IMG/VR virus record: IMGVR_UViG_3300022221_000006
Coordinates: 10,180-74,179 of that record
From: a virus
Reading direction: 5' to 3' (one strand)
DNA: 64,000 nt
Of this stretch, positions 4,220 to 36,658 are shown piece after piece (positions within the stretch are counted from its first letter, which is position 1; each line of letters starts with the position of its first letter). A program made the position numbers and the translations under genes. The notes under the pieces were generated by a model. It had not been told where the DNA came from, ran no database searches, and saw nothing but the letters and a program-made list of their open reading frames with translations.

Positions 4220-5830
4220 ATGACTGTAGCAAACGCCGCTGATGTCACCAGAACAGTAGCAGATCCTAACGCTGAATACCTATCAATGCGTGATATATGG
4301 GATCGAAACAGGGCTGTATGCGGCGGCGAGCGCTACGTAAAGGCCTTAGATCAACGCTTAAGTCCTAGCATGCAAAACATGCTTATTCCTTTTTCCCCAT
4401 CTATGACGCAGCCTCAATATGACTTCTATCGTTTAGAGGCTGAGTTACCTGGGATTGTGTCTCAATTTTCAAAGATGTTGGTAGGAGGTCTTCTGCGCAA
4501 GACCCCTGTACTAACTCTACCTGACGACATGCCTGAAGGTGTCCGTGAGGAGGCTCACGACTGGATCATGAATAGCTTCACCCAGGACAATTCATCAATC
4601 ACATCCTTTCTAGACACCGCCTTGTGGGAAGAGATTCAAACAGGACGTGCCTGGGTATATGTAGATTATCCTTTTGTTGAAGATGCAGATTCACTTACAA
4701 ATGCAGACTTCAGAGAACTTGCTCCATTTCCTATCCTATGGAAGCCTGAAGAGATTGTGAACTGGAAACTTGGAAAGGATGAGAAAGGAAATGCAGTCCT
4801 AAAACAGATCATTGTACGGACACTAGTCGAACAGTATGGTGATACTGAAGACACTGAATTTCATCCTACATTTAAAGATACAGTTTATGTTCATGAACTC
4901 GACAGCGTCGGATATTATCAGATTCGCGTATTCGAAAGAGCTGATGATGTACAAGACGCACCGGTCGTTAATGGAAATCCCTACAAGAAACAATCCGATA
5001 GTAAGGTGGCTTTTCCTCTTGTAGACACGATCACTGGGATCAAAGCAAATGGCGAACGTTTGACACGAATCCCTGCATGGCCTCTTAATGGTAGCATGAA
5101 GATTACTGATCCAATCATTTCCGCTATCGTAGACAAAGAAATCAGTCTATATAATAAAATCAGTCGCCGTAATCACTTACTATATGGTGCTGCTACATAC
5201 ACTCCTGTGATATTCTCCGACATGGGTGAAAAAGAGTTCGACGAAATTGTAGCGAGTGGACTGGGAAGTTGGCTGCGGTTACCTATGGAGGCTAAAGTAG
5301 AGGTTCTAAAGACTCCTACAGATGCTCTGAAAGATATGGAGAAAGCGATTGCAAGTGCTATTGAAGAGATGGCACGCTTAGGGATTCGTATGTTAAGTCC
5401 TGAGACTGCTCAATCAGGGATTGCTCTTGAGATTCGGAATGCTGCCCAGACTGCTCAGCTAGGCTCCTTAAATAACAAGGTGTCTGCGATCATGTCTAAG
5501 ATTATTGCTTTTATGCTGAATTGGCGGTATGATTTAGAATTGACAGATTCTGATGTTGAATTTGACCTTTCATCTGACTTTAATCCCATCCCACTAGGTG
5601 CTGACTGGATTAGACTAGCAACAGAATGGTATGAGAACGGTCTACTTCCACGTAGCGTTTGGCTTCAGATTCTGAAACAGAATGACATTGTCTCTCCTGA
5701 CTATGATGATGAAGACGGTCAGACAGAGATTATTGAAGACGACCTGATACAAGGTCAGGCGAAGGCCGAAAATGAAGATATCCAAGATCAACTTGACAAA
5801 GAACTGGAAGATGAAGATTTAGATGCCTAA
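4220..5830 (+). CDS. Portal protein (DUF4055-type)
   Basis: 536 aa with acidic C-terminus. Motifs Y..R, GRAWVYVDYP, EIVNW. First gene of the head module. Confidence 0.85.
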   Translation: MTVANAADVTRTVADPNAEYLSMRDIWDRNRAVCGGERYVKALDQRLSPSMQNMLIPFSPSMTQPQYDFYRLEAELPGIVSQFSKMLVGGLLRKTPVLTLPDDMPEGVREEAHDWIMNSFTQDNSSITSFLDTALWEEIQTGRAWVYVDYPFVEDADSLTNADFRELAPFPILWKPEEIVNWKLGKDEKGNAVLKQIIVRTLVEQYGDTEDTEFHPTFKDTVYVHELDSVGYYQIRVFERADDVQDAPVVNGNPYKKQSDSKVAFPLVDTITGIKANGERLTRIPAWPLNGSMKITDPIISAIVDKEISLYNKISRRNHLLYGAATYTPVIFSDMGEKEFDEIVASGLGSWLRLPMEAKVEVLKTPTDALKDMEKAIASAIEEMARLGIRMLSPETAQSGIALEIRNAAQTAQLGSLNNKVSAIMSKIIAFMLNWRYDLELTDSDVEFDLSSDFNPIPLGADWIRLATEWYENGLLPRSVWLQILKQNDIVSPDYDDEDGQTEIIEDDLIQGQAKAENEDIQDQLDKELEDEDLDA

Positions 5831-8800
5831 TGTAAATACAGCGATCTATGATGGTAAAGTAGATCGCGCTGCTATGCTACGCCTGTACGAACAGAATACC
5901 CATGGAAAGATAGAAGCTGTCTTTGATGGTCATGTAGTTCGTCTAGATAAGCTAGTGAAGAAGTCTAAAATTAATTCAAAGACTTTCAAAGACTTTCAAA
6001 AGAATCTTGATATCGAATTGAAGAAGACCTACAAGGAAGCCTTTAGTGTTTCTAAAAGGTCACTGCTTGACATGGCAGCAGATCAAATGTCGTTTACATA
6101 CCAGAATTTAGATGCTGCATTAAGTAAGGTGTGGCGCACAAAGAGACCCCAAAGACGTATCTCTGAAGATATTGTCTTAAAACAACCACTCTACGAGAAT
6201 AGAACTCTTGAGATGGGTTGGAAAGGGGTCTCTAAAAACGAACGAAAAAGACTTGCGCAAGTGATTCGTAAAGGTATTGCAGACGGTGATACCGAAGAGA
6301 TCATCGCCAGGAATATCAGAAGAGGCAATGTTCATAAAATAACCCGTAATCAATCGCGATCGTTAGTGACCACTGCAATGACGAGTGTTAATGCTCAGGT
6401 CGATCATAGTGTCTATGTCGAGAATGAAAAAGCACTTCAGGGTTGGCAGTATGTAGCTGTTCTTGACTCAAGTACTACACAGATATGTGCCTCCCGTGAT
6501 GGTAAGATATATGGCGTCGATGACACAGCGTACCTCCCTCCTGCTCATTGGCAGTGTCGTTCGACAATAATCCCTGTGGTTAAGAAGTGGGAAGATCTTG
6601 CAAGTCTAGAGAGCGTTGCTCAGCTGCGTAGAAGAAATATGGCAAAACTAAGCCCTGCTCAGATAGCTAGATACGATGGCCAGACGCCTCTGAAAGAAAC
6701 ATATAATGCCTGGCTCCTGAGACAGCCTTCAAAGATCCAATATACGCATCTAGGTGATTGGCAGAAAGTAGACCTTTTTAACAAAGGGAAGATACATCTT
6801 TCTAAATTTACTTCTCCGGACGGTAAAACATTAGGGATTCGTCAATTGCGTCGGATGACAGATTCTGAGTATGCACCTCCAACAGGTTCTCAACGTTTTG
6901 CATTAGCAAAGGAAAAACTAGATGCGATGAATCTTGGTGCTATCTCTCCTGATGATTTTATAAACGACCGTAAGATGACAAACACCCTAAAGAATTTCTA
7001 CATTCTTCAATCAAAAGAATTGGACGGTACTTTATCACTTACTAACTATAGAGGAAATCTCATAGGAACAAAGAGAGCACAGAAACGAAGAGTGCTTACA
7101 AGACCTCCCAGAGAAGAACAGGTGATTTTCAATCCGGTCACAGGTCGTTATGAAGATTCAAGAATGTTTCAGCCAACACCTTCTGTTCTCGTGAACAATA
7201 TGAGGCTTGTGAATGAGAGTAGTATTCTTAAGGTCGCAGATAAAGAATACATCGATCGTTTTATTGGAAGTCTCTCTGAGTATATGAGTGTAAATGAAAG
7301 AGCTGTCGTGGCTGATAATCTGAGAATTCTCTTCACAAGATATCGAAAGAACCCCGAGAATTGGGTTAACTTTAAAGCCATTTCACAAGCACAGATTAAG
7401 TTTGACGTAATGAATGTCTCTGACACAATCGAGACACAGCTCAGAAGCGATGCGAATCTACTGAAGAAGCTTAAGCAGGATAATTACATTGACCCTGTCC
7501 TAGGTCCTGTTACCTTTGAAGATCTTGACAAACACTTCATAAGTAATATATTAGAACGTAATAAATGGGAAGATCGTATTGCTCCTAAAATCTCAGAGGA
7601 ACTCCGTGACGTTTTCGATCACAACATACCATTTAAAATACGAAGACGTTTGAGTGATTCAAATTTACAGCAGTTCTATCTAAAATTTGCACATAGACTT
7701 TCTCTGGCAGACAGTCCTGATGTAGACCAGCTAGCGGCTGCTTTAGGTCGTGATCTGTACAATCTTGCGAACTATAATGGCAATCGTCGACAATGGTATG
7801 ACCTAGGTAAGAAACTTTTAGAGTCGAATAATAAATTCTTCGAACTAGAAACCTTTGGAGTTCAGAAAAGACGTATGAAAAGTAGAATGAGTGGTCAGCT
7901 ATTTGGACCTTATTACGACACGTTCTCTTACAACATTCGCATCACAGACCCTCGTATCCAGAGGTATTCTCAGCTAAATAGAAAGATTGAGGTAGGTCTC
8001 AGGATCGGTGTCACAGATGTCGGTAATCGACTGGTCTTTCGAGAAGGTTATAAAACGTACTTCATCAAAAACCGTCTTGGCCTCTACACAGACACTCGGA
8101 TACCAATTACGTCAACAAGCAGTTTTATGGACTTTCCAGAAGGTCTTATAGACAAAGAAATGGCCGCATCTTTGAACTGGGCAGCTAAGACTGAGTATCG
8201 AATCGATGAGGACTTCTACGACTCGATCATGCATATAATGAACTTCACAGACGATAAAGGTAAGGCAAAATACTTCGATGATATAAACGAGTACCGTAAA
8301 TATATAGCAGCTAGAGGTGATGCGTATGAAAGATTTAAAGCGATGGAGTGGTTTCGTAAGAGAGGAGTTGCTTTTAGTAATCATCCTTTTGTTGACCACC
8401 GTGTGCGTATCTATGACCGTGGCTTTATCGGTCCTCAGTCTGGTGAAACTTTTAGACCTTTCCTGAATACTGCCAAGGAGAAAGTCTTAGGCATCGATAA
8501 CTTTAGAAATCTGCAAGATCAAATTGGAGCTTTCTTAGGAGGTCTCGATGACTATTTTGAAGGTCGTTATAACTCTCTAAGTGTGACAGGGCGACAGAAG
8601 ATTGCAATAAAATGGCGTAAAGAGCTGGTTACTATTGGAAATCATATGATACGAAATAAGCCAAATGATGTCCGTAAGATTCTTCAGTCAGACATGGTGG
8701 CTAGAATCGAAGGTGAAGAATTAGGTAAGTTTCTCAGATTCGCAATTGAAGTTGCTAAGATAGATAATTATCTAGACGGTGTCTATAACAAAACCTCTCT

Positions 8801-10442
8801 TCAAAAGCTTTCTAAATACAAGACAGCTCTCGCTCTTGAACAAGACGCATCGTCTTCAGGTGCCCAGATCATTGCGCTAACCACACGAAATAAGCAATTA
8901 GCAGAGCTTAGTAATGTTGTCCCTACAAACCAGAAACGACGACTCTACGACGAAATAGCAGCTGCCACGTTCAACGATCCAGCGTTTAGAAAACTAAATG
9001 AGAAGTTTGGACTTACTGAGAAAGATTTACGCAAGGCTGCGAAGGCTCAGAACATGGTAACCTTTTATGGAGCAGGAGAGAAGACAGGGATTCTGAACGT
9101 TGAAGGTAAATTGGCAAAAGTTCTTGAGAGACAACCTGGTACTCTCGTTGTGAAGGCCTCTGATCGCGACGTTGTCCTCAGTGAGATATCAGCACGCATT
9201 GCTCGTTATGAACGCTTTGATCCTGCTATTGCTGAAGAATTGAAAGTCCTTAGAAGCAATGTACGTGACATATTCAACAAAGGTCTTCATGTAGGGGATG
9301 ACATCATGGAAGACTTATATTTCTTGGACCCCGCGACCAAAGATCTGGTGTTACAAATGACGCAAAACTACACAAAGGTCGTAACCCCTGATGATTTTCG
9401 GCAGATTGCTAAGATTATGAGTATGCATCTTGGCGAACAGGTTCCTATCTTGAAAGACTTTACAAAATATTTAGGGCGACTGGGTGAAGACTTTCTCATC
9501 AACGCTAAACCTTCTAAGAGTAGTTTTTCCTGGAAAGGTATTTTAAAGGAGCGGTTATTTGGTTCATCCCGTGATGGTTATAAGCTGTCGAAAGAAACCA
9601 GTAAGCTTCTGGGACTCCCTGCAAACACAGCTATCTCAAAGCAGATTCTGAGTAAGTTTGGCTTCTGGCGTCCTAATGGAACTCTCAGCCAGCTACTCTA
9701 TGGAGTAAAGGATCCAGGAGATCGCAGAATAGGAGCTAAGTATTTCAAGATTCAAATAACAAAATTTAAGAAAATCTTTTCAATCGAAGTTTTCAAAGCC
9801 AACAGATTGCCTAAAAGGTGGACAAACATCCCCTGGAAGAACTTCGATGGGAAGACAATTGAGCAGAACTTTACGCAGACCTTCGAAGAGCGTCTGTTGT
9901 ATAGAGATAAGGACGGTAACTGGGTTACGAATATTCTTCAAGTACCTCAAAAGACGCAGGCGACTTGGTGGGAACAAATTCTCAATGATGCAGGAAATAT
10001 TGACGATATTGCTGATGCTACAAAGGCTAGAACTGCCTATGCTGTAAATGGGAATCACTCCAATGATGCTGTGATTGTCAAGCGATTCCATTTGTGGGGT
10101 AAGTCTGAAGATGTTCCTACTTCTACAATTCATGACGCTTTCTTTACTAATATCGCGGATATGTTAAAAGCACGGTCGGCTCTGCGTAAAATATATGCTG
10201 ATGCTATGAAAACAAATGTTATAAAAGCAACTCTAGATGAGATGTTAGCGAGAGGTCTCCCTCGTGCACTTTATGACAAGTATTTGAATGAAGCCATTGA
10301 AATAGGCCTTATCCCTGTACCAGGAAGGTCTCGAGTAGGCGGCAAGCTACTAAAAGATACCGACATATTAAACTCTGAAGACATCTTAAAGAAGGTTAAT
10401 GAAGTCTTTCAGGAAGATGCTTATTGGTACGGCGTGGGGTAA
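5823..10442 (+). CDS. MuF/SPP1-gp7 minor head protein fused to T7-superfamily single-subunit RNA polymerase (candidate virion RNAP)
   Basis: N-terminal ~345 aa: WQYVAVLDSSTTQICASRDG...PPAHWQCRS (MuF). C-terminal: DHRVRIY (DxxGR-like), motif A QDASSSGAQ (D1008), motif B R1070-K1074-Y1082-G, NGNHSND, motif C IHDAF (D1438). Confidence 0.92.
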   Translation: MPNVNTAIYDGKVDRAAMLRLYEQNTHGKIEAVFDGHVVRLDKLVKKSKINSKTFKDFQKNLDIELKKTYKEAFSVSKRSLLDMAADQMSFTYQNLDAALSKVWRTKRPQRRISEDIVLKQPLYENRTLEMGWKGVSKNERKRLAQVIRKGIADGDTEEIIARNIRRGNVHKITRNQSRSLVTTAMTSVNAQVDHSVYVENEKALQGWQYVAVLDSSTTQICASRDGKIYGVDDTAYLPPAHWQCRSTIIPVVKKWEDLASLESVAQLRRRNMAKLSPAQIARYDGQTPLKETYNAWLLRQPSKIQYTHLGDWQKVDLFNKGKIHLSKFTSPDGKTLGIRQLRRMTDSEYAPPTGSQRFALAKEKLDAMNLGAISPDDFINDRKMTNTLKNFYILQSKELDGTLSLTNYRGNLIGTKRAQKRRVLTRPPREEQVIFNPVTGRYEDSRMFQPTPSVLVNNMRLVNESSILKVADKEYIDRFIGSLSEYMSVNERAVVADNLRILFTRYRKNPENWVNFKAISQAQIKFDVMNVSDTIETQLRSDANLLKKLKQDNYIDPVLGPVTFEDLDKHFISNILERNKWEDRIAPKISEELRDVFDHNIPFKIRRRLSDSNLQQFYLKFAHRLSLADSPDVDQLAAALGRDLYNLANYNGNRRQWYDLGKKLLESNNKFFELETFGVQKRRMKSRMSGQLFGPYYDTFSYNIRITDPRIQRYSQLNRKIEVGLRIGVTDVGNRLVFREGYKTYFIKNRLGLYTDTRIPITSTSSFMDFPEGLIDKEMAASLNWAAKTEYRIDEDFYDSIMHIMNFTDDKGKAKYFDDINEYRKYIAARGDAYERFKAMEWFRKRGVAFSNHPFVDHRVRIYDRGFIGPQSGETFRPFLNTAKEKVLGIDNFRNLQDQIGAFLGGLDDYFEGRYNSLSVTGRQKIAIKWRKELVTIGNHMIRNKPNDVRKILQSDMVARIEGEELGKFLRFAIEVAKIDNYLDGVYNKTSLQKLSKYKTALALEQDASSSGAQIIALTTRNKQLAELSNVVPTNQKRRLYDEIAAATFNDPAFRKLNEKFGLTEKDLRKAAKAQNMVTFYGAGEKTGILNVEGKLAKVLERQPGTLVVKASDRDVVLSEISARIARYERFDPAIAEELKVLRSNVRDIFNKGLHVGDDIMEDLYFLDPATKDLVLQMTQNYTKVVTPDDFRQIAKIMSMHLGEQVPILKDFTKYLGRLGEDFLINAKPSKSSFSWKGILKERLFGSSRDGYKLSKETSKLLGLPANTAISKQILSKFGFWRPNGTLSQLLYGVKDPGDRRIGAKYFKIQITKFKKIFSIEVFKANRLPKRWTNIPWKNFDGKTIEQNFTQTFEERLLYRDKDGNWVTNILQVPQKTQATWWEQILNDAGNIDDIADATKARTAYAVNGNHSNDAVIVKRFHLWGKSEDVPTSTIHDAFFTNIADMLKARSALRKIYADAMKTNVIKATLDEMLARGLPRALYDKYLNEAIEIGLIPVPGRSRVGGKLLKDTDILNSEDILKKVNEVFQEDAYWYGVG

Positions 10443-10446
10443 TAGA

Positions 10447-10463
10447 ACCCCGTTAAATTAACC
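10447..10463 (+). promoter_or_regulatory. Class II repeated motif ACCCCGTTAAATTAwCC (candidate phage late promoter)
   Basis: Near-identical copies at 31664 and 57855. Lies upstream of scaffold/capsid. Confidence 0.7.
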
Positions 10464-10546
10464 CTGTTATTTAGTGTAACAAGAGTCTTAACAATTAAAC
10501 GTGTTGCTGTGCGACACATAAATGAGCTGTGCTCAGGAAAAGAAAG

Positions 10547-24974: not shown

Positions 24975-27900
24975 TGAGTGTAATAGCAGCAGTAGTTGGG
25001 TTAAGCGCTTATATCGGAGGTGCCACAATTCTCACCGCCGTAATGTTAGGCGCTTCTATAAAGTACCAACAGTACAAACAACAAAAAGCCTTGGACGCTA
25101 TGGAGGCAGCAGCTGATGAAGCAAAAGGTTTTGAGGTTGTAACTGAGGGGGAAATTGATAGCGTCAAACTTGTATACGGTCGTGCAAAGATAGGTGGAAC
25201 GAGAGTCTTGCATAGATTAAAGAGTAATTATGTCTATGCCGCCCCTGCTTTAGGTGGCGAAGTATTTGTCACGGAAGGTGATACTAGACTGGCAAGCTCT
25301 GTAGATAGTGTCCCTGTTCTAGGTACCATTAAGGTTATTTCAAACACAACTAGCTTCAACGGTGCTGTCGATGGTACTTGGGATAGCGACAACGAGACAA
25401 TCACACAGCTAACTGTCTCAAGTGAAATCAGCAGATCATCTCCAACCGGTCCTTTTACAGTGACCACTGAGGTTGGTAAAGCAGCTATCTTCGGTAGTGC
25501 ATACGTCGCGGTCAAGATAGGGCATACACCTTTCGATACCTACGGTGATTGGTCTGTTGAAGAAGGCAATGCTGAAGAGCCTATTGCGACTGTATTTAAT
25601 TACAGAGTGGACTCGTATAATAACACGACAGGTCTCTTAACACTAAAATTTCATTCCGCTACAAATCCTGAGTATCTATCAGGTACTAGAACCGCATCTC
25701 TTTCTGCAAACAAGAATGGTAGTAAGAATGAATTTCTCTTTATAAATCAGGTAATCTGTCATAAAGGTATCTCAGCCGTCCATTCTATTGATATAGACGG
25801 TCGTGACTTTAGACATCCTGATTTCGGAGCTTCAGGGCGTATCCATGTGTATCGTGATGGTGGTATAGGTGATCCTATGCTGAATGCAAACATTACGGGA
25901 CAAGCTGCCTCGTTGTTTCCTGAGACAGCGTATGCTTCGATGGTATTTAAACTAAATCGAGACGAACCACAGTACAGAGGAATCCCCGAGGTTGTCTTCT
26001 ACGTTGATGGTTTCGAGTTAAGTCGCATTGATGAATCATTAGGAGTTTACACAAAGAGCTCTACAAAATATAGTTCAAATAACCCTGTATATGTGCTACT
26101 TGACTATCTAACAGCTGAGTACGGTCGCAACTTAGATATTTCAAAAATTGACCTGGCTTCTTTTCATGCAGCAGCTCAGTTGTGTGAGAAGCAAGTCGAT
26201 GCAGGATCTCTCGAAGATATCGATATCAATGGTGCATTATGGAATGAGAAAGTAAAGACTACAGGCACTCGTAATATTAAGCTATATGAATGTAATTTAG
26301 TACTTGATACAGCTGACGACTTTCGAAGCAATGTCAACAAGATTCTAGGAAGCATTCCTGAAGCTCACTTCATGTGGTCTGATGGTACCTATAAAATCAG
26401 CTTGAAATATCCAGAGGTTTGGAGCGCTGGGACTTGGCCTGCCGGTTCCATAGTTCAGTATGAGACTGGTGGTGTTATTGACTTATACCGCTCTACTGTA
26501 TCAACAATCGAAGTTCCCGGAGCTGGAGTAGAGTGGGAGACAGGGCCTGACCCTCAACTTGTATCAGCCTATCTCACAGATGATGATATAATTCTTGAGA
26601 ATGAGATAACAATGTCTTGGCCTGATCTTTCAAGTCGTCTCAACTACTGTACAATTACCTTTGTGAATGAATCTAAGGACTTTGAAAAGGATACCGTAAG
26701 TTGGCCTAATCGCTATGGACCTGGTCTTACTACAGTCTACGACACGTATCTCGCAGAAGACAACGGTATTGAATTAGAGACTTCTAAGAGTCCACATGGG
26801 ATAACTACTGAGTACCACGCGACAGCTTATGCTGAGATGATTGTCCGTAAATCCAGACATGCGCATGTTCTAGGGATGACTGTTACGAATGAATTCATGT
26901 ACTTAGAACCAGGAGATGTAATCCATCTCAACAGTACAGAGCTTAAGGTTCCTTCAGAGATATACCTTATCGATTCTCTAAAAGTCTCTGCACAAGGAAA
27001 TATCGATATTCAATTGACAAAGTTCGATGCTCGCATTCTTGCCTGGAATGCTAAAGATATGGAAGTTGTCTCTAAGCGTTCTATCTATTCAGGTGATCTA
27101 CCACAGGTGACGGGTCTTGCATACACTCCTCCTGCTCCTGGAAAGGCTACGTTGACAGGCGGAAACCTTACATGGGATCCTTCTACATATAAAACAGCTC
27201 TTAAATATAATGCGTATATTGCAGGTGGTCCGGCTGATATCCAAGACTTTAATACGGTTTGGGAATTTCTAGGTTCTTCTACTTCGAACAGTCTCACAAT
27301 GCCTCCCTTTACGCCAGGTCGTTATACATTGACTGTTGTCGCTGAGGCTCTTAGCGGTAAGGTTCCTCCGGTGTACAATCTCACAACCGGTTCTCGATGG
27401 CCTTTACTTACCGTGGATATTGCTGATAGCTTACTAGGCGGTAATCAGTTTGCACTGACACTTTATAAATACTCCACAACAGATCTTACAGGAACTTCTG
27501 TAGAAGGTGGATCCTTTGATTTCACAAATCATGTGACAACACCACCAGTAGGGTATTATGTATCCGAGGGTGTTGCACGTGAAAACGCAACTGATCCTTT
27601 ACAGCCGGGCGATCTATATGTATCTACGGCTGTAGCTTCTGTAAACCACCCTGCTACAATCGATATAAGTCTAGCCTGGACAGCCTTGGAACTCTTCGAT
27701 CCAAAGACCACTCAGAAGACCATTAAGTTCTATGCACGAGTTCCTGCTGCTGAACCAAATCCTTCAGCTCCTTCAGGCGGCTCCTATTTATTTCCAGAAG
27801 GCCCTGTCACACCTCCCTCCTCTGCACTTGCATCAGGTAGTTACACAGGTAAGAGTTTTTCAGTGGCGACTCAGATCAATGGTTCACCTACCGATCTTGC

Positions 27901-30637
27901 ATCAGCAATAATAAGTGTAGATGGATTACACATGTATGTGTCAAATAATGATGGTAGCATTTTTGAGTATGATCTGTCGGAACCTTTTGATGTTTCGTCT
28001 GCAACTTATACATCGAGAACTATTAGATTCGCAACGACACTAGGAACGTCTCAATACACATCATTAGCCTTATCTCCTGATGGTAGTAAAATATTTGGAA
28101 ACAATGCCAGTACTAAGAAAATACACTCCTTTAGTTTTGGTACTAACTTTGATATCTCAACTCTTACAGAAGATGCAGGCTCTCTTAGTGTGCTTACCCA
28201 ATTCGGAGCGAATGGCTTTATTAACTATGTAATAAATAGTACAGGAACACGTGTATTTGCCCTCCATACATTGTCACCTTTCCGAATACATCAATACAAT
28301 CTGAGTACTCCTTGGGATCTTTCAACAGGCGTTTACGCAGCTACTTATATAAGTGCTGTTACAAATACTACACAAGGTCTTGCGATTTCTAGTGACGACA
28401 CTAAGTTATATGTCGGTGACAATACGACCAAGACTATTTTAGAGCTTTCAATATCAGCTTCGGGAGATGTCACTACATGTTCTCTCACAGGTGCCGCTAC
28501 TGATTTCTCGGATACAAATGTATATGTTGTTGATTTTACATTTGCAAATGAAACACTGATTGTATGTGGTGCTGCTATCCCCTATTTTATATATCAGTAT
28601 GCAAGTAGCATTGAGTGGGCGACAGAAGACCCTGGTACTGAAGGTTCTTCGTGGATCACTGAAGCATCTTTCTCAAGGATGGGTAGCTATGGAATAAATA
28701 CTAATACGCCTGCTTATTTAGCGCCTGTCTTAGCGCATAGTCCTGGTACGCAGGTAACGAAGCAGAGAGTCTATCAGTGGTCAACAGTAGCGCCTACTTT
28801 CCTTCCAAATGCCCAGACTACTTATAACTGGCTGAATGGTACACAGGGAAATGCGACGAACATGGGCTCATGGACGTTGGGTGTCACAGCCAGTCCAGGA
28901 GGCGTCGGTATTAGATTATGGGTTGCTGAGATTTCTACATCAGCCCCGAATGGCACAGTCTCTACCACTCTCGCGTGGGATACAGGAAATCCAAATATAT
29001 ACGCAGGTGACATTACAAACTTACCCGATGGTAAGACACAGGTAGTATCTATTTACCGATGGGATACAGCTATTCCTACTATTGTAGGTTCCAGTACCTA
29101 TACCTGGGAAACGGATATCCTTTCTGTAATTCCAACAGGCTGGTCAGATACGATACCTGCCACTGTTTCAGGCTATACACTATATGAAGCTCGTATTACA
29201 CTTGTTGACATAAAAGAGGCTGTCACAACGTCTGTTGATTGGTCTGCTGCTAAACGTCTTGCAATCAACTATGCTGGTGGTGAAGGTATTAATGCTCGCC
29301 GCGCCTACGTGTCCACCGTTCAAATAAATTCAGATGAGTCATTAGTTCTGAGTTCCGGTACAGGCTCCCTACCAGATTCTGAGGCCTGGGATTTCACCGG
29401 TGTTACTTGGAGCGATACGTTACCTACAGCAGGCGCTGGTGAAGTTGTTTACCAATCCGATGGAATGTACGATGAGAATACCACTAATGTGACATGGTCT
29501 CCCCCTTATGTTGCTGCTTTTAAAGTAGGTGATCTTAGTGCAATATCTGCTTCGATGGGTACCCTGAATGTAACTTCATCACTCACGATGCAAAATTCGG
29601 GTGTCATTAAGTCGGAAGATGCTACTTCTCTAGTTGCAGGCGCAGGTCTTTGGATGAGCGGTGGAACAAGTGCACAGTCTGAGTTTAGAGTAGGGGACCC
29701 AGCTGCTAGCAACTACTTAGCTTGGTCTCCTGCTCTAGGTGTGCAGGCAAGAGGTGCTGGACTCTCCATAAATGGAGCAGCCGGAGCGATATCTCTCAAT
29801 GATGAAACCTTTGGAAATAAGGGGGTACAGCTTGAGTATAATGTAGGATCTCCTCGGATATATATCGGAAATGGCGAGGGTAGTTCTATCAGTTATGAAA
29901 ATAATGCATTGACACTCGGCGCTGGCGTGCATATAGATGGCGCAGATTCCATATCAGCTGTTTCCAACTTCTATCGCTCACACGATTGCACTGACACTGT
30001 TGGTTGGGGTACTTTCTTAGGTGGACCGACTCTGACCCAGTTTGACTATGGTTGGAGAGTCACTATACCAAATACTGACACCGCAGAGTTCTGGGTCTAC
30101 AACACGAGGCTTTTTCTAAATAATACTGCACAATGGGGTAGTGACAGAAAAGTCTACTTTGATATAAGCCTCGCGCCTACTCCTACAGAACCTAATCTTC
30201 GAATGGAGATTGGCATGGGATATATGCGGACGAATGTCGTATATAGAAACGGAGTGTGGTTTTCCATAATCTATGATGATACCTCACCGATAGCGGTGCG
30301 AGGTGTGTGCTATAGATGGGGTGTTCCTACTTACACAGCAGCTATGCCTTTTGATATCATGGATCCATCGCGCAGTGATCGCATTCAATTTTTCATAGAC
30401 TACAAGCCCTCGATCAACGTCTGCGACTTCTACATAAATGGTATCTATCAAGATTCTCTCCCAATGGGTAGCGGAGATAGACCTACTACTGAAAATAGCA
30501 GCGAGACATACATGGCCGGTCTTCGGACTTACAATGCAGGAACACTTACAGGACTTCTGAATCGAAATTTCTTCATTACCCAAATTAAATGGTGGGTTGC
30601 ACTTACTGGAGGAGCTTTTGCTGGGTACCCTCGTTAA
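24974..30637 (+). CDS. Central tail fibre / host-specificity protein (J-like) with beta-propeller repeats
   Basis: LVYGRAKIGG, NNPVYVLLDYLT..YG, LEPGDVI, FN3-like segment, repeated YDLSEPFDVSSA/YNLSTPWDLSTG propeller blades, LSAISASMG. Confidence 0.85.
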   Translation: MSVIAAVVGLSAYIGGATILTAVMLGASIKYQQYKQQKALDAMEAAADEAKGFEVVTEGEIDSVKLVYGRAKIGGTRVLHRLKSNYVYAAPALGGEVFVTEGDTRLASSVDSVPVLGTIKVISNTTSFNGAVDGTWDSDNETITQLTVSSEISRSSPTGPFTVTTEVGKAAIFGSAYVAVKIGHTPFDTYGDWSVEEGNAEEPIATVFNYRVDSYNNTTGLLTLKFHSATNPEYLSGTRTASLSANKNGSKNEFLFINQVICHKGISAVHSIDIDGRDFRHPDFGASGRIHVYRDGGIGDPMLNANITGQAASLFPETAYASMVFKLNRDEPQYRGIPEVVFYVDGFELSRIDESLGVYTKSSTKYSSNNPVYVLLDYLTAEYGRNLDISKIDLASFHAAAQLCEKQVDAGSLEDIDINGALWNEKVKTTGTRNIKLYECNLVLDTADDFRSNVNKILGSIPEAHFMWSDGTYKISLKYPEVWSAGTWPAGSIVQYETGGVIDLYRSTVSTIEVPGAGVEWETGPDPQLVSAYLTDDDIILENEITMSWPDLSSRLNYCTITFVNESKDFEKDTVSWPNRYGPGLTTVYDTYLAEDNGIELETSKSPHGITTEYHATAYAEMIVRKSRHAHVLGMTVTNEFMYLEPGDVIHLNSTELKVPSEIYLIDSLKVSAQGNIDIQLTKFDARILAWNAKDMEVVSKRSIYSGDLPQVTGLAYTPPAPGKATLTGGNLTWDPSTYKTALKYNAYIAGGPADIQDFNTVWEFLGSSTSNSLTMPPFTPGRYTLTVVAEALSGKVPPVYNLTTGSRWPLLTVDIADSLLGGNQFALTLYKYSTTDLTGTSVEGGSFDFTNHVTTPPVGYYVSEGVARENATDPLQPGDLYVSTAVASVNHPATIDISLAWTALELFDPKTTQKTIKFYARVPAAEPNPSAPSGGSYLFPEGPVTPPSSALASGSYTGKSFSVATQINGSPTDLASAIISVDGLHMYVSNNDGSIFEYDLSEPFDVSSATYTSRTIRFATTLGTSQYTSLALSPDGSKIFGNNASTKKIHSFSFGTNFDISTLTEDAGSLSVLTQFGANGFINYVINSTGTRVFALHTLSPFRIHQYNLSTPWDLSTGVYAATYISAVTNTTQGLAISSDDTKLYVGDNTTKTILELSISASGDVTTCSLTGAATDFSDTNVYVVDFTFANETLIVCGAAIPYFIYQYASSIEWATEDPGTEGSSWITEASFSRMGSYGINTNTPAYLAPVLAHSPGTQVTKQRVYQWSTVAPTFLPNAQTTYNWLNGTQGNATNMGSWTLGVTASPGGVGIRLWVAEISTSAPNGTVSTTLAWDTGNPNIYAGDITNLPDGKTQVVSIYRWDTAIPTIVGSSTYTWETDILSVIPTGWSDTIPATVSGYTLYEARITLVDIKEAVTTSVDWSAAKRLAINYAGGEGINARRAYVSTVQINSDESLVLSSGTGSLPDSEAWDFTGVTWSDTLPTAGAGEVVYQSDGMYDENTTNVTWSPPYVAAFKVGDLSAISASMGTLNVTSSLTMQNSGVIKSEDATSLVAGAGLWMSGGTSAQSEFRVGDPAASNYLAWSPALGVQARGAGLSINGAAGAISLNDETFGNKGVQLEYNVGSPRIYIGNGEGSSISYENNALTLGAGVHIDGADSISAVSNFYRSHDCTDTVGWGTFLGGPTLTQFDYGWRVTIPNTDTAEFWVYNTRLFLNNTAQWGSDRKVYFDISLAPTPTEPNLRMEIGMGYMRTNVVYRNGVWFSIIYDDTSPIAVRGVCYRWGVPTYTAAMPFDIMDPSRSDRIQFFIDYKPSINVCDFYINGIYQDSLPMGSGDRPTTENSSETYMAGLRTYNAGTLTGLLNRNFFITQIKWWVALTGGAFAGYPR

Positions 30638-30653
30638 CAATTGCGCCATATGT

Positions 30654-30683
30654 GGTATCTTATATGAATAGGAATAATCCTAT
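30654..30683 (+). promoter_or_regulatory. Class I repeated motif GGTATCTTATATGAATAGGAATAATCCTAT, copy 1
   Basis: Exact 30-bp copies at 32770 and 33186. Each lies just upstream of an SD and start codon. Confidence 0.8.
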
Positions 30684-30705
30684 TATAATAATCAGGAGAT
30701 ACTCG

Positions 30706-30990
30706 ATGAAATATTTAATTATAATAATAGCTCTACTAACAACCCCCGCGTTTGCCTGTAATTCTCATGATACTAATGGGTATATATGGATTGGGGCTGG
30801 ACTTCATGACAGTCCACACGATGTAGCATTTGGAAAAGAGATAGCAGAGTGGGGTGTGAGCTTCAATTTACACCAGATCAGTCCTATCAACAGCCTCCGT
30901 TTCATCCTTAAGCACGATTCAGGGATATGGACGAGGGAGAGAGACTATGGCTACAACACTGCAACCTTCAGGCTACAAGCTAACTTCTAA
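30706..30990 (+). CDS. Small secreted/outer-membrane protein
   Basis: AGGAG SD, signal peptide MKYLIIIIALLTTPAFA, H-D-S..GYN pattern, C-terminal Phe. Start re-called from 30589. Confidence 0.65.
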   Translation: MKYLIIIIALLTTPAFACNSHDTNGYIWIGAGLHDSPHDVAFGKEIAEWGVSFNLHQISPINSLRFILKHDSGIWTRERDYGYNTATFRLQANF

Positions 30991-31538
30991 TGAAACTTTC
31001 AGAAATATCACGTAAAAAGTCACTGGCACGGATCGTCAGTGGCTTCATGAACATGGATGTTCCCGTAAAGGAGCGTATAGAGTCTCTTGAGAGATACCTA
31101 TGCACTCTCCCTCAACAAGAAGCACCAGTTGAAGAACTCTGGGGCAAAGATGTATATGTTCGGGAACTTATAATCCCTGCAGGTTCTTTTGTAATAGGGC
31201 GTATTCACAAATATGATCATGTAAGTATTATGATCGAAGGCGAACTTTTAATGTGGACAGAATTCGACGAGACAATACACTTAAGTGGCTACAATAAAGT
31301 CATTGCAAAAGCAGGTATTAAACGAGTCGGTTATGTTCTACAAGAAACGAAATGGATTACCGCTCACGGTGTCACCGAGACAGACAACTTTAAAAACCCC
31401 GTCGAGGCTTTAACCGTTGCAACATATGGAGAGTATAGCACATTCAAGGATGCTGAGATGGTATGCATCGAGGGCAACTCCATAGAACAAAACCTGAGTC
31501 TGCCGGTGTCAAAATCGGTCTCCAGAACGCCAGACTAG
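30990..31538 (+). CDS. Cupin-fold phage protein
   Basis: VYVRELIIPAGSFVIGRIHKYDH...G...AGIKRVGY....WITAH. Confidence 0.7.
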   Translation: MKLSEISRKKSLARIVSGFMNMDVPVKERIESLERYLCTLPQQEAPVEELWGKDVYVRELIIPAGSFVIGRIHKYDHVSIMIEGELLMWTEFDETIHLSGYNKVIAKAGIKRVGYVLQETKWITAHGVTETDNFKNPVEALTVATYGEYSTFKDAEMVCIEGNSIEQNLSLPVSKSVSRTPD

Positions 31539-31663
31539 CACCACGATCTCAGGGTCACCCTTATGGGAGTGTGCCTGAAAAAACGACAGCAGAGACGGCC
31601 AGTCTGGAAGCCGTCCTCAAAAAATCCTTTAGAATCAAGGGGTTAGGGCGGTCGTCACCTCAG

Positions 31664-31680
31664 ACCCCGTTAAATTATCC
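31664..31680 (+). promoter_or_regulatory. Class II repeated motif (ACCCCGTTAAATTATCC)
   Basis: Copy of the 10447/57855 motif, upstream of the lysis genes. Confidence 0.7.
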
Positions 31681-31849
31681 CTGTAGGCTCCCCCGTAATG
31701 TAGTATTTATAACTCCCTATCACCACTGTTGTAAATCTATAACAATAAAGGATTAAAGAATAGAATAAGGATATCCCCTCAAGACCTTCTCTAAAGAGGT
31801 CACTCAATAGTCCCTAGGGCTAACTAAAATATAAATAAAGAGGTATATC

Positions 31850-32386
31850 ATGGTTCCAATTGTAGCAGGTCTTCTAAAAGGAGGACTCTCGCTTGTCGCA
31901 AATGCATTTCTTGCAAAAGGTAAGGAATGGGTCGAAGAGAAAGCGGGTATCACTCTCGATCCTAAAGAACCACTCTCAGAAGAGCAGTTGGTTGCTCTAC
32001 GAAAGTTTGAGATGGATAATGAAGTGGAATTGCGTAAGCTACAAATTGAAGATAATCGTCTCGCAAAAGAAATCGACGAGATGTATCTAAAAGACACTCA
32101 GAGCGCACGTCAAATGCAGATGACGGCGTTAGAACAAGACGACGTATTCGCTAAGCGTTTCGTTTATTACTTTGCATCTTTTTGGTCACTAGGCGCTGCT
32201 ATATACATTGCAGCTATAACTTTTATGGCAATCCCAGAGGCAAATACTCGCTTTGCTGACACAATATTGGGCTTTCTCTTGGGTACAATTGTCGCCCAGA
32301 TCATCTCATACTTCTATGGTTCTAGCAAATCATCACAGAATAAGGATAAACTGAAAGATGAGATGCTGAAGAAGGTATTGAAATGA
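31850..32386 (+). CDS. Holin-like membrane protein
   Basis: D..SAR.MQ motif, two TM helices, YFYGSS; adjacent to endolysin. Confidence 0.7.
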   Translation: MVPIVAGLLKGGLSLVANAFLAKGKEWVEEKAGITLDPKEPLSEEQLVALRKFEMDNEVELRKLQIEDNRLAKEIDEMYLKDTQSARQMQMTALEQDDVFAKRFVYYFASFWSLGAAIYIAAITFMAIPEANTRFADTILGFLLGTIVAQIISYFYGSSKSSQNKDKLKDEMLKKVLK

Positions 32387-32712
32387 GGCTTGGTCAACAC
32401 CAGGAAGCATTTTTCAGAGACCTCCTCAAACTGGGTATCCACGCATTATCCCTGGGATATGAGATACGTGGCGGCGAATTACAACGCCCAATAGAGATGC
32501 AAGAGCTCTATATTAAGATGGGACGCTCTAAGACGATGCGGAGTGAGCATCTCAACAAGTGTGCGATAGATCTTTATTTCACGAAGAAAGGTAAGCTTGT
32601 GTATCCCGAGGAACTCGGACGATACTGGGAGAGCCTTGACACTCGAAATTCAGCAGGGATGTTCTGGAAGTCTTTCAAAGACGGACCTCATTATCAACGT
32701 TCAACCCGATAG
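32383..32712 (+). CDS. Endolysin, M15 family peptidase
   Basis: R...Q, S.H....A.D, and D.PH Zn-peptidase motifs. Confidence 0.85.
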   Translation: MRLGQHQEAFFRDLLKLGIHALSLGYEIRGGELQRPIEMQELYIKMGRSKTMRSEHLNKCAIDLYFTKKGKLVYPEELGRYWESLDTRNSAGMFWKSFKDGPHYQRSTR

Positions 32713-32720: not shown

Positions 32721-32752
32721 ACCCCTTATGTTCTTAGGAATATAGGGGGTTT
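32721..32752 (+). terminator. Terminator-like hairpin after lysis genes
   Basis: ACCCCTTATGTTC-TTAG-GAATATAGGGGGT followed by a short T run. Confidence 0.6.
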
Positions 32753-32769
32753 AAAACTGCGCAAAAATG

Positions 32770-32799
32770 GGTATCTTATATGAATAGGAATAATCCTAT
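32770..32799 (+). promoter_or_regulatory. Class I repeated motif, copy 2
   Basis: Exact 30-bp repeat. Shares AACTGCGCAAAAA upstream and CACAACAA downstream with copy 3. Confidence 0.8.
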
Positions 32800-32820: not shown

Positions 32821-33132
32821 ATGAACAAGCAATTTGCAGAAATGATCGAAAAAAGTCTTTCAGGTTTTAGTAAGTACGGTTTGGAGGCGTTGGCAAAACG
32901 TAAGCTGACGGCTTCGGATATCCTTGCGAGAGCTACAAAACGGGTTGTCTCACGGGAAGATGAAGAGTATTACGTTCTTGTACGTAGTCCTACGAACGAC
33001 CAGATAAAAGCCCGTATTACTGACCGCACACGGGTAGGTGATTTGGAAGGTATAATCGATGGTCTGCTGGACCGACTTAATGACAGTATGGAAACTGACA
33101 TCCACGGCAAGAAGCCAAAAGCTAAAGCCTAG
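32821..33132 (+). CDS. Hypothetical early protein
   Basis: GAGGT SD, directly downstream of a class I motif. Confidence 0.75.
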   Translation: MNKQFAEMIEKSLSGFSKYGLEALAKRKLTASDILARATKRVVSREDEEYYVLVRSPTNDQIKARITDRTRVGDLEGIIDGLLDRLNDSMETDIHGKKPKAKA

Positions 33133-33168: not shown

Positions 33169-33185
33169 TGAACTGCGCAAAAACA

Positions 33186-33215
33186 GGTATCTTATATGAA
33201 TAGGAATAATCCTAT
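33186..33215 (+). promoter_or_regulatory. Class I repeated motif, copy 3
   Basis: Exact 30-bp repeat; heads the gene run leading to the second RNAP. Confidence 0.8.
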
Positions 33216-33236
33216 CACAACAAACGAGGTAACACT

Positions 33237-33694: not shown

Positions 33695-33725
33695 TCAACA
33701 AATCTTTTTTCGAAGGAGGAAAGGT

Positions 33726-34190: not shown

Positions 34191-34201
34191 CCGGAGGAAC
34201 A

Positions 34202-34336: not shown

Positions 34337-34384
34337 TAAAATTTATAGTGGGTCTATATTTGATATCGTTAATCCCAAAGGTTA

Positions 34385-36658
34385 TTGAGAAAATTGAAAG
34401 CTATGATAAAACAAAAGATAATTCTGACAACAACAAAAAGGATAGCAAAGGAAATTGCACCACAAAACCCCCTAATATATCTAAAAGAACATGATGTCGA
34501 AAAGTATATTAATGAATTAATCTCGACAGTCTATCTGTTCACACGCCCTAAGAAGGGTTCATCGGACCCTCTCTATATGGTTGAAATTATATCGGCTATC
34601 GGACATCGGGTCAGAGGAAAGTTAGGACTTAGAAAAGACTCAGCGTTAGCAGCTAAAACAGGAGCGTTTCTTTTATATACATTCGAAGTACTTAATATCA
34701 TCCATGTTATCCTTGGAGCTGGTAGACGTGGACATAATGCGTACATTGTAGATGTTTTGGACGATGCTACGATAAATGAACTATGGAAGGAGCTAGGTGA
34801 CCGCGAGATCGAGAAGTTACCTGCGCTACAGCCGCATCAGGATTGGAAGCATTCAAGGCATCCTACAGGAATGCTTATGGTAAAAACAGGATGTAAAGAG
34901 ACACTTGAATCACTAACACCTCAAACACATCCTATCGTCTTCAACGTCCTGAACAGAGCTCAACAAGTAGGTTGGCGAATAAATACGGAGATTCATCACT
35001 TACAACAATGGGCACTAAAGTACAAAACAGTCGCCTTTGCAGATATATGGGAACAACAAAACCCTGAAGCGCGTGCTACAAAATTAAGAGAGGCTCGATC
35101 TATTGACTCGATTGCGAGTAAATACCTAGGGACAACCTTCTATCATCTCTATTACTATGACTTCAGAGGTCGTAAGTATGCAGCCACTGCTTATCTACAC
35201 GAACAAGGAAGTGATGTAGCGAAAGGTCTCTTGCTCAGAGATGATAAGAAGCGAATAGGAAAAGAAGGATTTTTCTGGCTACTTGTGAGTATCGCCTCTA
35301 ACTGGGGCGGTGAGAGTGGTCGTGAAGATGGATTGAAAACAGATAAAATACCTCTTGAAGAAAGGTATCAATGGGCGCTCGCAAATGAGGATATTTTATT
35401 GTCCTACGCGAAATCACCTAAAGTGAATCAGGGATGGATGAAAGCTGATAAGCCCTGGCAATTTATAGCAGCGTGTTTTGAGCTAAGGTCTTGTTACCGA
35501 TGGGCTAAGTATGACCATACTAAGCATGATCACCTAAAGGAGGAAATCTATGAATATGAGTCTCATCTTGAGTGCTTTATTGATGGTAGTAACAATGGCT
35601 CTCAGCATCTATGTGCGCTTACACGCGACGAAGTTACGGCTCCTCACGTTAATCTTGTGCCACTTGATTATCCTGGGGACCTCTATAAATATGTTGCAGA
35701 TCATGTTTGGGACAGCTTAGAGGCTCAAGTTAATCTCCTGACAGAAGCTGAAGTTGAAATTTGTGAAAAGTTCATAGATGATCTGGTCGTGCACAAAAAG
35801 CGAATAAACAGTGCGCCCCGTGGTAGCGAAATCAAAAGGCTCCTTGTGGATAAGATACGAAAGTTTAAGGAGGAACATGGACTTTTAATGGTGCTTGTAG
35901 CTCCTGTATTTTGGTTTAGAATCCAGGATGCTAAGGAGAAACGTAAGATTGTGAAGAGAAACACAATGACGCTTCCCTATGGCGGAACACCCTATGGACT
36001 TGGACAACAGATCATTGATGATGCTAAGAAACATGGGATTGAACAACTCCTATATATGGAACATAGCTGGGGCGCTTTCTTAGGAAGAGAAGTATTTAAA
36101 AACTGCCAGGAAGCTCTTAAACGACCTATGCAACTCCTTGATATCTTTGAGAAGGCAGGGAAGCTAGCAGAAGCCGAAGAGAGATTCTTAAAATGGACTG
36201 TACCAATAACAAACTTCCCGGTAGTGCAGCACTACACGGAAGGTCGTGTGAAGAAGATATGGGTTCAGTACGGACCGCCTAAAGGAACCAGAAATTCAAC
36301 AGGTTACTTTACAAACACCTTACAATTGCATATTTGCTTTGTAGAAGATCCACAACCATCGAAGCGCAAACAAGCACAGGGAGCTTCTCCTAATGCCATT
36401 CACAGCCTAGATGCAGCACACTTAATGCTTACAGTAGATGAGGCACCTTTTCCAATAACAACTGTTCATGATTCTTTTGGATGTTTGTTAGCTGATATGC
36501 CTGAACTGTACAAACTAATACGTGAAACATTCGTAGAACTCCATGAGGTCAATCCACTCTATTCATTGTTTGAACAGATAGGAGGCGACATCTCAGACGT
36601 TGATCTGGGGAATCTTGATATCAATTTGATACTTGATTCAGAATATTGTTTTTCATAG
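34385..36658 (+). CDS. T7-family single-subunit DNA-directed RNA polymerase (non-virion)
   Basis: YYDFRGRKY, motif A IDGSNNGSQH, motif B RKIVKRNTMTLPYG, SPNAIHSLDAAH, motif C VHDSFG. Confidence 0.95.
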   Translation: MRKLKAMIKQKIILTTTKRIAKEIAPQNPLIYLKEHDVEKYINELISTVYLFTRPKKGSSDPLYMVEIISAIGHRVRGKLGLRKDSALAAKTGAFLLYTFEVLNIIHVILGAGRRGHNAYIVDVLDDATINELWKELGDREIEKLPALQPHQDWKHSRHPTGMLMVKTGCKETLESLTPQTHPIVFNVLNRAQQVGWRINTEIHHLQQWALKYKTVAFADIWEQQNPEARATKLREARSIDSIASKYLGTTFYHLYYYDFRGRKYAATAYLHEQGSDVAKGLLLRDDKKRIGKEGFFWLLVSIASNWGGESGREDGLKTDKIPLEERYQWALANEDILLSYAKSPKVNQGWMKADKPWQFIAACFELRSCYRWAKYDHTKHDHLKEEIYEYESHLECFIDGSNNGSQHLCALTRDEVTAPHVNLVPLDYPGDLYKYVADHVWDSLEAQVNLLTEAEVEICEKFIDDLVVHKKRINSAPRGSEIKRLLVDKIRKFKEEHGLLMVLVAPVFWFRIQDAKEKRKIVKRNTMTLPYGGTPYGLGQQIIDDAKKHGIEQLLYMEHSWGAFLGREVFKNCQEALKRPMQLLDIFEKAGKLAEAEERFLKWTVPITNFPVVQHYTEGRVKKIWVQYGPPKGTRNSTGYFTNTLQLHICFVEDPQPSKRKQAQGASPNAIHSLDAAHLMLTVDEAPFPITTVHDSFGCLLADMPELYKLIRETFVELHEVNPLYSLFEQIGGDISDVDLGNLDINLILDSEYCFS

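Follow-up and report, generated by a model that had tools for sequence, protein, structure and literature searches.

The 64,000-nt stretch of viral DNA analyzed here (the window; IMG/VR record IMGVR_UViG_3300022221_000006, contig positions 10180-74179) comes from a siphovirus of a widespread uncultured clade, distant kin of the Naomviridae. It encodes two T7-type single-subunit RNA polymerases (RNAPs), one fused behind a MuF head-protein domain (MuF-RNAP) and one free (RNAP2). Two conserved DNA motifs, class I and class II, head its gene blocks, and the wiring is reciprocal and kept among relatives: RNAP2 lies behind class I, and the fusion gene lies in a class II unit. This arrangement suggests a two-polymerase relay in which packaged MuF-RNAP reads class I to yield RNAP2, which reads class II and with it most other genes, a reading toward which we lean with modest confidence. 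The assignment of enzyme to promoter, the packaging in the virion and the independence from host RNAP are what we infer. Coordinates are collected in Table 1.

The portal gene overlaps the start of the fusion gene, and the N-terminal part of the fusion matches Pfam Phage_Mu_F (PF04233; 50.3 bits against a cut-off of 29.6, residues 144-250) and head-morphogenesis PHROG profiles over residues 2-408 (phrog_241 at 1.9e-55). By profile match and by a gene adjoining the portal gene, the fusion is a MuF/SPP1 gp7-type protein. Its C-terminal part matches RNA_pol (PF00940) at 34.5 bits (cut-off 22), covering only residues 991-1100, and MuF and RNA_pol are the only Pfam domains found in the protein. Sequence search alone barely finds T7 RNAP (E = 0.48) with this part, and only 164 clusters of relatives emerged from 1.8 billion representatives; the full-length cluster members span 1264-2073 residues, with the polymerase part C-terminal. 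When 25 members, down to 21% identical, are aligned, no variation is seen at the motif A Asp, at the motif B Lys, Lys, Tyr and Gly, or at the motif C Asp.

An AlphaFold model of residues 600-1539 (mean predicted local confidence, pLDDT, 81.5; predicted template-modeling score, pTM, 0.80) matches T7 RNAP over its whole length (Foldseek E = 7.5e-18). VIA-align gave Z values of 28-30 over 525-637 residues against T7 and mitochondrial RNAPs, running on T7 RNAP from residues 85-103 to residue 883, but only 21-22 against N4 mini-vRNAP. A hidden Markov model of the fusion family recovered T7 RNAP (4.7e-26), RNAP2 (7e-19), the DSS3_VP1 RNAP and N4 gp15/gp16, and no match to N4 mini-vRNAP (residues 998-2103) was returned at E <= 10. 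Judged from sequence and predicted structure, the module is a T7-type polymerase, very divergent, with the whole fold and the catalytic residues kept. The fusion is a single open reading frame (ORF) of 1528-1573 residues with a recognizable MuF domain in 19 of 19 relatives checked. In EBPR siphovirus 1 (25771-31144 of that locus) the annotation splits it into three genes (head protein, HNH endonuclease, hypothetical protein), so that an insert carrying HNH, probably an intron, breaks up the polymerase part there.

RNAP2 is the second, canonical T7-like enzyme that the earlier note had placed at 34385-36658: it matches PF00940 at 1.5e-67 (228.8 bits, cut-off 22) and T7 RNAP in the PDB at 4e-46. 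Its DGSNNGSQH, KRNTMTLPYGG, HDSFG and SEYCFS segments align to T7 and T3, with motifs A, B and C and the C-terminal foot intact. The ATG at 34403 is the likelier start, giving 751 residues, because relatives align from residue 4-9. The strings by which that note had told the two enzymes apart were all located, DGSNNG and PNAIHSLD at residues 400 and 669 of RNAP2, and DASSSG and, at residue 1408, VNGNHSND in the fusion. BLASTP aligns the two proteins only in the neighborhoods of motifs A and C (24-28% over 53-66 residues, E about 6e-4), and they are therefore no recent duplicates, as had been claimed. The phylogeny that the note had called for agrees: in a quick-search tree with long branches, the fusion family branches off as a clade of its own on a long stem, RNAP2 falls with the RNAPs of DSS3_VP1 and Kolga beside the T7-like enzymes, and N4 stands apart on another long branch. 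Both enzymes are intact T7-type polymerases of separate, old lineages, and either would presumably synthesize RNA from specific promoters. Within the RNAP2 specificity loop an insertion blocks reliable alignment to T7 R746, N748, R756 and Q758, and promoter specificity is not readable from the sequence. In six IMG/VR loci (L034 and L037-L041) the RNAP2 matches are about 0.7 kb longer than usual.

The two repeated motif classes described in the earlier note proved real, with three class I copies against 0 expected and four class II copies against 0.08 expected. The class I copies share an identical 30-nt core (30654, 32770 and 33186), and a matrix built from relatives only scores them at 30.6-42.9, against a shuffle maximum of 7.9. 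The conserved part is TGCGGAAAA-N3-GGTATCTTATATGA, written TGCGC/GAAAA-N3-GGTATCTTATAT in this phage and tGCGgaAAa-N3-gGTATCTTATATGA(a/t)a as the consensus in relatives, where the spacing is fixed. Three of the 66 sites listed in relatives are coding-sequence false positives; in the 63 genuine ones ten consecutive positions are invariant, with ATCTTATATGA as the invariant core, and the motif is unchanged in the high-GC relative L020. A degenerate class I-like stretch at 58720-58745 was rejected, as it fails at these invariant positions.

Transcription from class I probably starts at the G after GGTATCTTATAT. The 32 nt that follow TATATG fold to a mean minimum free energy (MFE) of -3.23, versus -1.72 +/- 0.19 when shuffled (none of 200 shuffles reaches -3.23), and the stems often begin within 3 nt of that G. 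The dyad ATAGGA-ATAA-TCCTAT of this phage sits on the downstream side of the conserved block, and its sequence is not kept in relatives. Such a motif with a hairpin on its 3' side is as expected for a promoter followed by a 5'-terminal stem-loop in the transcript. Class I is the nearest recognizable motif upstream of RNAP2 in 33 of 34 distinct relatives, where a GGGG-TTTT terminator-like sequence often lies directly before the first copy; here a hairpin (32721-32750) followed by TTT lies directly 5' of copy 2. The earlier note had placed class I before early-type genes. One copy does head the RNAP2 unit; copy 1 lies between the tail and lysis modules and heads a 94-residue gene and a tail-fiber-like gene, and class I is therefore not confined to early-type genes.

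Could class I instead be read by host RNAP, alone or with an early factor, as in T7? RNAP2 would then still read class II, and the fusion would serve elsewhere, in DNA entry by transcription, in priming, or in boosting late transcription before packaging. We regard this scheme, with those other roles of the fusion, as unlikely. T7 and T3 do begin with host promoters ahead of gene 1, as annotated in the T3 record; a perfect TATAAT lies within the class I-like core of DSS3_VP1, TTGCGG...TATGAT with a 16-nt spacer can be read in some relatives, and copy 1 here overlaps a TTAACA-16-TGgTATCTT match. However, the ten invariant positions of the genuine sites, from which the three false positives depart, include the would-be spacer, and the aligned hexamers in the clade (TTATAT or TATATG) lack A-11 or T-7, ATCTTATATGA holding no hexamer with both. 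Constancy of the motif in L020 also speaks against a host promoter, and unless the enzyme acts at entry, it is difficult to see why a packaged-type fusion would keep its active site fully conserved. Sigma-70-like matches show no enrichment (40 vs 38.3 +/- 5.9 and 15 vs 13.5 +/- 4.7 in 30-48 kb and 57-64 kb). This result and the class I core argue against a plain host promoter, insofar as the host uses a sigma-70-like consensus.

Class II is written A-N-CCCGTTAAATTAACCC in this phage, and its consensus in relatives, A-N-CCCGTTAAATTAACCCt, occurs in nearly every related locus (60 sites counted). Using a matrix from relatives only, the three intergenic copies in the window (10448, 31665 and 57856) score 26-33.5 against a shuffle maximum of 20.3; the fourth, at 40385, is weak. 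Over the whole genome the same matrix finds five sites on the plus strand and one on the minus strand, with scores of 21-33.5 and a shuffle mean of 10. In 14 of 19 relatives, and likewise here, class II follows the stop codon of the fusion within about 12 nt. In relatives a copy also opens the replication genes, 0.4-1.3 kb downstream of RNAP2; class II is therefore not a late-only signal. The sites that the earlier note had listed, before capsid genes, lysis genes and one isolated gene, all stand; its list was incomplete, since further copies lie before the terminase unit, in reverse orientation, and in the DNA polymerase gene.

Downstream of the shared core, three subtypes can be told apart: AGGTGTGA at capsid sites, CCCTC-N4-5-GAGGG at replication sites, and a C-run followed by TAnnnT at lysis and terminase sites. 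Here too the RNA would fold, the 35 nt from CCC onward having a mean MFE of -5.47 versus -3.10 +/- 0.18 for shuffles (0 of 200 reach -5.47), and the stems mostly begin at CCC. The element AATTAACCCT within class II equals positions -17 to -8 of the annotated T3 promoter consensus, and a C after it at the replication-block sites of relatives extends the match to -7. This likeness is a lead that a T7-like enzyme may read class II.

Class I and class II both appear as conserved, directional, intergenic blocks of about 20 bp heading gene blocks, the pattern of single-subunit RNAP promoters. That they are instead protein-binding or RNA-level elements, such as operators, processing sites or packaging signals, strikes us as highly improbable. 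Such a role would suit the 5+1+5 palindrome GTTAAATTAAC, the one inverted class II copy, and the terminator-like hairpin between the class II site at 57855 and its ORF. Yet the repeats are strictly co-oriented with genes here and in three complete relatives, the palindrome is conserved asymmetrically, its left half-site variable and its right half constant, and the copies stand between genes where gene blocks begin, followed by 5' hairpins whose sequence varies.

Several copies have distinctive surroundings. The hairpin after the class II site at 57854 (57919-57942, 9 bp plus a T-run, about 45 nt on) precedes ORF 57944-58621, and site and hairpin could make a short RNA or an attenuated unit. 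At contig 3960-4310, two terminator-like hairpins stand in tandem behind the gene that ends the small-gene block, and the class II copies at 4066 (+) and 4290 (-) converge. A reversed copy near the lysis genes is also present in the complete relative G003. Homology of about 90 nt between the lysis class II leader and the reversed copy at contig 4290 was considered and rejected, as it fails beyond the core. In two complete relatives (G001 63341/63410 and G003 69034/69080), class II and class I or class I-like sites stand in tandem, 46-69 nt apart, a pairing that would suit genes needed both early and late.

The wiring extends well beyond this phage. In IMG/VR, relatives of RNAP2 turn up at 70 loci, some 55 of them with 41-75% identity, and 390 stretches match the polymerase part of the fusion; both genes share a contig in at least six near-complete genomes, and also in DSS3_VP1. 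Each of three complete relatives has 5-6 matches to class II and 2-4 to class I; apart from a single class II copy, all of these lie on the coding strand, and a reversed-pattern control in them gave 0. Among sequenced isolates the fusion occurs only in EBPR siphovirus 1 and the Naomviridae phages DSS3_VP1 and DSS3_PM1. The DSS3_VP1 polymerases are 29% and 34.5% identical to those here, and the phage analyzed here is best placed as a relative of the Naomviridae and not as a family member: gene order and both polymerases are shared, but identity is only 29-35%. In the published DSS3_VP1 genome neither motif is annotated, and a 1463-residue 'head morphogenesis' protein, gp108 (YP_010105321), holds the unannotated RNA polymerase; the Naomviridae paper mentions neither RNA polymerase (PMC8323127).

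We find in DSS3_VP1 three copies of a class I-like GCATCTATAATGA, two upstream of its RNAP gene and sharing a longer upstream block in register with class I, the third before another gene. A class II-like GGTGCGTTAAAGAGG occurs 12 times on the coding strand, three times in tandem before the portal and fusion genes. A relay there would use the GCATCTATAATGA sites first and the GGTGCGTTAAAG sites later. With the same reciprocal wiring in DSS3_VP1, the wiring is therefore older than the split of the two groups, and both motifs have changed along with the enzymes between this clade and the Naomviridae. Pelagibacter phage Kolga has an enzyme of the RNAP2 clade and a 633-residue MuF protein, too short for an RNAP module; a motif search of its genome (30% GC) gave chance-level matches only, and its two AATTAAC..TATAGGAGA sites overlap ribosome-binding sites.

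The relay would run as follows. The MuF fusion and the late-operon position of the gene are the two observations that suggest presence in the virion and ejection into the host. In SPP1 the portal targets gp7 to the procapsid interior, and the toxins that gp7-like proteins carry at the C terminus are thought to be delivered into the host (PMC6316719). Likewise, a few copies of MuF-RNAP would dock at the portal via the MuF domain, be packaged, and be ejected with the DNA. MuF-RNAP would then start at the three class I promoters and make early RNAs, among them the RNAP2 mRNA. RNAP2 would read class II, driving the terminase-portal-fusion unit, the scaffold-capsid-tail unit, the lysis genes and one further gene, and in most relatives the replication block as well. 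New fusion protein would be made late for packaging, closing the loop. We favor this account as the most economical one because RNAP2 cannot make itself, no host-type promoter is evident, and a packaged-type fusion, its active site fully conserved, would be available at entry.

A number of observations weigh against it. In 17 of 19 sites of the lysis/terminase subtype, a TAnnnT box lies 14-21 nt after TTAACC, which fits sigma-70 geometry. The T3 geometry implies a start 8 nt downstream of CCC, and the class II hairpins suggest one right at CCC. No class II site precedes the replication genes of this phage, and the copy at contig 4290 points against all genes. A block of about 15 kb, from window 58795 across the junction to contig 3954, has no recognized promoter and several strong terminator-like hairpins. 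A polymerase of 940 residues on MuF would have to exit via a long tail, and we know of no MuF cargo shown to do so. Finally, the TATAT-G initiation-like end of class I is at least as T7-like as class II, so that the assignment could be swapped. The earlier note had proposed the relay itself. The wiring at its heart is conserved in the clade and in DSS3_VP1; the proposal omitted the class III elements described below, class II is not late-only, and the 15-kb block shows no signal.

The box at lysis and terminase sites leaves room for a late role of host RNAP as in N4, with the virion enzyme reading class I, RNAP2 reading middle and capsid-type class II, and host RNAP reading the lysis/terminase subtype. 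The conserved class II core would then act as a -35 substitute or an activator box, like the MotA box in T4. The commonest spacer is indeed 16-17 nt, the box is absent from the capsid and replication subtypes, and at the lysis site here TAATGT stands at that distance. We nevertheless think such an ending, and such a part for the core, quite unlikely: the same 18-nt core, far longer than a -35 element, also heads units without the box, and no sigma or activator gene was recognized among the scanned proteins, most early genes being without any match.

A swap, with class I read by RNAP2 and class II by the MuF-fused enzyme, seems very unlikely. In its favor, the TATA-like end of class I with its G resembles canonical T7 and SP6 promoters, and of the two enzymes RNAP2 is the canonical one; but RNAP2 would then need itself for its own production, the injected enzyme would turn on capsid, tail and lysis genes first, and in many relatives terminator-like sequences stand between the first class I site and the class II unit upstream of it.

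The relay accounts neither for the last block of about 15 kb nor for class III, a two-hairpin element standing before the replication genes in four copies. Its form is a variable first stem followed by CCGG-N-GTAACCGG. A search of 2.3 Mb of relatives found it only in L042, in two copies whose different first stems still pair, and in this phage it folds no better than shuffles. By eye 11 of 15 positions are identical to class II; the idea of a diverged class II is not supported, given its own two-hairpin form and its occurrence in one relative only. Class III may serve as a middle promoter or processing site, or it may be a mobile element; another possibility is that read-through from class I reaches the replication genes.

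A wider claim is that the clade, including the Naomviridae with deoxyuridine (dU) in their DNA, runs its whole program without host RNAP, the enzyme tethered to the portal by MuF passing through the tail and reading class I, and the second enzyme reading everything else. We put this forward tentatively and doubt that it holds in full. Autonomy from host RNAP may be linked to non-canonical DNA, dU in the Naomviridae and possibly 2-aminoadenine here, that the host enzyme may read poorly. The phage encodes an adenylosuccinate-synthetase-family protein (62722-63885; PF00709, 3e-46) whose best PHROG is the PurZ family and, in the same genome, an HD YfbR-like phosphohydrolase (46674-47309). PurZ with an HD dATPase is a marker of phages with 2-aminoadenine DNA, and the two genes raise the possibility that this DNA may be base-modified in that way.

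The closest known systems are N4, with the same enzyme superfamily and the same first two steps, and P23-45, and the relay can in part be regarded as a variant of that type. In N4 the virion RNAP gp50 leads to RNAPII (gp15/gp16), and this to host RNAP with the N4 single-stranded DNA-binding protein (SSB) (PMC4496689). Like N4, this phage has two single-subunit polymerases of the T7 superfamily and a second polymerase encoded in the early region (PMC4496689); as proposed from the genes, a virion-carried enzyme would likewise serve a few early promoters, three in N4 and three class I sites here. Unlike gp50, with about 3500 residues, peptidase domains and a zincin-like peptidase fusion (the criterion of PMC5512222), the fusion has 1539 residues, MuF and RNA_pol only, with a T7/mitochondrial-type module of about 940 residues behind MuF. 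N4 promoters have a conserved hairpin upstream of the start, whereas the hairpins here begin at the presumed +1. RNAP2 consists of one full-length chain, its presumed promoter motif is strongly conserved, the late units carry a phage-specific motif and not plain host promoters, and the virion is that of a siphovirus.

The Thermus phage P23-45 has a virion RNAP, gp96, fused to the tape measure, and a non-virion RNAP, gp64; it too is long-tailed, with a structural-protein-fused polymerase that transcribes the second polymerase gene, and two DNA motifs (bioRxiv 10.1101/2022.12.01.518664), as we would expect here. Its RNAPs are two-barrel enzymes and the partner is the tape measure, whereas both enzymes here are T7-type and the partner is a portal-docked MuF; P23-45 also still needs host RNAP for middle and late genes. 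With T7 and T3 (Autographiviridae) the phage shares a free T7-like RNAP from an early unit and conserved promoters of about 20 bp for later genes, including internal ones before scaffold and capsid genes, and with T3 the AATTAACCCT of the consensus. Those phages, however, start on host sigma-70 promoters with no polymerase in the virion, and the start-site geometry relative to the shared 10-mer seems different from that of T3.

The roseophages DSS3_VP1 and DSS3_PM1 are Naomviridae, siphoviruses with dU-DNA (PMC8323127). Their gene order (portal, MuF-RNAP, scaffold, capsid, tail, lysis, early genes, RNAP, replication) is that found here, and DSS3_VP1 has both polymerases and related versions of both motifs; the motif sequences differ, and the fusion is annotated there only as head morphogenesis. 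MuF-toxin fusions also have an N-terminal MuF beside the portal gene and a C-terminal cargo presumed to travel with the DNA (PMC6316719, PMC5512222), but the cargo here is a complete RNA polymerase. In a 2017 survey of polyvalent virion proteins, N4-like phages were the only ones with virion RNAP modules (PMC5512222). Our literature search, with most subscription journals outside its coverage, found no published MuF-fused or siphovirus virion T7-type RNAP, nor such a relay.

To our knowledge, virion-carried RNAPs come from only a few phage groups, namely N4-like, phiKZ-like and crAss-like phages and P23-45. If true, the relay would add a compact T7-type virion enzyme delivered by a common MuF head protein, in siphoviruses with hundreds of IMG/VR contigs, and would mean that MuF can carry an enzyme of about 940 residues into cells and not toxins alone. 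If the assignment holds, synthetic biology would gain an orthogonal pair ready for use, two small polymerases each with a sharply defined promoter. The cultured relatives DSS3_VP1 and DSS3_PM1, which infect Ruegeria pomeroyi, make the relay directly testable.

Table 1. Genes, motifs and elements of the phage (window positions, except where contig positions are given; aa, amino acids; RNR, ribonucleotide reductase)
Feature	Position	Strand	Context	Score
Structural genes, in order	portal 4220-5830; MuF-RNAP 5823-10442		tail fiber, portal, MuF-RNAP, scaffold, major capsid, 2573-aa tape measure, 1887-aa tail protein
MuF-RNAP fusion gene	5823-10442	+	1539 aa
MuF/SPP1-gp7-like head domain	5823-7046		aa 1-408, then linker
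T7-type RNAP module of fusion	7620-10442		aa ~600-1539, complete
Fusion motif A, DASSSG	8844-8861		aa 1008
Fusion motif B, KAAKAQNM..FYG	9033-9071
Fusion motif C, HDAF	10131-10142
Class II site	10446-10466	+	4 nt after MuF-RNAP stop, before scaffold and major capsid genes	33.5
Class I copy 1, promoter-like	30639-30669	+	before 94-aa ORF 30706-30990 and 182-aa tail-fiber-like ORF 30990-31538	30.6
Small insert	30706-31538		followed by lysis genes
Class II site	31663-31683	+	before lysis genes; subtype with C-run and TAnnnT box downstream
Lysis genes	31850-32712		followed by small genes without known function
Class I copy 2	32755-32785	+	before ORF 32821-33132	42.9
Class I copy 3	33171-33201	+	heads unit from 33237 through RNAP2 to SSB (to 38139)	39.8
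RNAP2, free canonical T7-like RNAP	34385-36658	+	757 aa from TTG 34385; followed by SSB
Class III two-hairpin element, copy 1	38182-38218	+	before kinase and DNA polymerase genes
Replication and nucleotide-metabolism genes			kinase, DNA polymerase, exonuclease, primase-helicase, RNR, ligase
Weak class II-like match, 2 mismatches	40383-40403	+	inside DNA polymerase gene; may be chance	21.4
Class III copy 2	41307-41343	+
Class III copy 3	41505-41545	+	just before ORF 41566
Class III copy 4	46188-46224	+	before exonuclease, primase-helicase, RNR, ligase block
Class II site	57854-57874	+	before ORF 57944-58621 (TTG start)
Last block			small genes, running across contig junction
Class II site outside window	contig 4066	+	before terminase unit
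Class II site outside window	contig 4290	-	reversed

The first 134 bp of the 74,179-bp contig are repeated at its end, which marks it as a complete phage genome, assembled as a circle, of about 74,045 bp. GC makes up 42.4% of it, compared with 48.7% in the 3-Mb bin (a metagenome-assembled genome) that contains it, and host assignment from the bin is therefore not reliable. The plus strand carries all long ORFs in the window, which has no tRNA and no Rfam family, and the terminase gene lies outside it. The phage also encodes a peptide deformylase (59367-59957; PF01327, 1.2e-25), and the primase-helicase ORF begins with a perfect 30-nt tandem duplication, two copies of TGAGCCACCTAAAAAGGGAGGTGTTGAGGG at 48803-48862.

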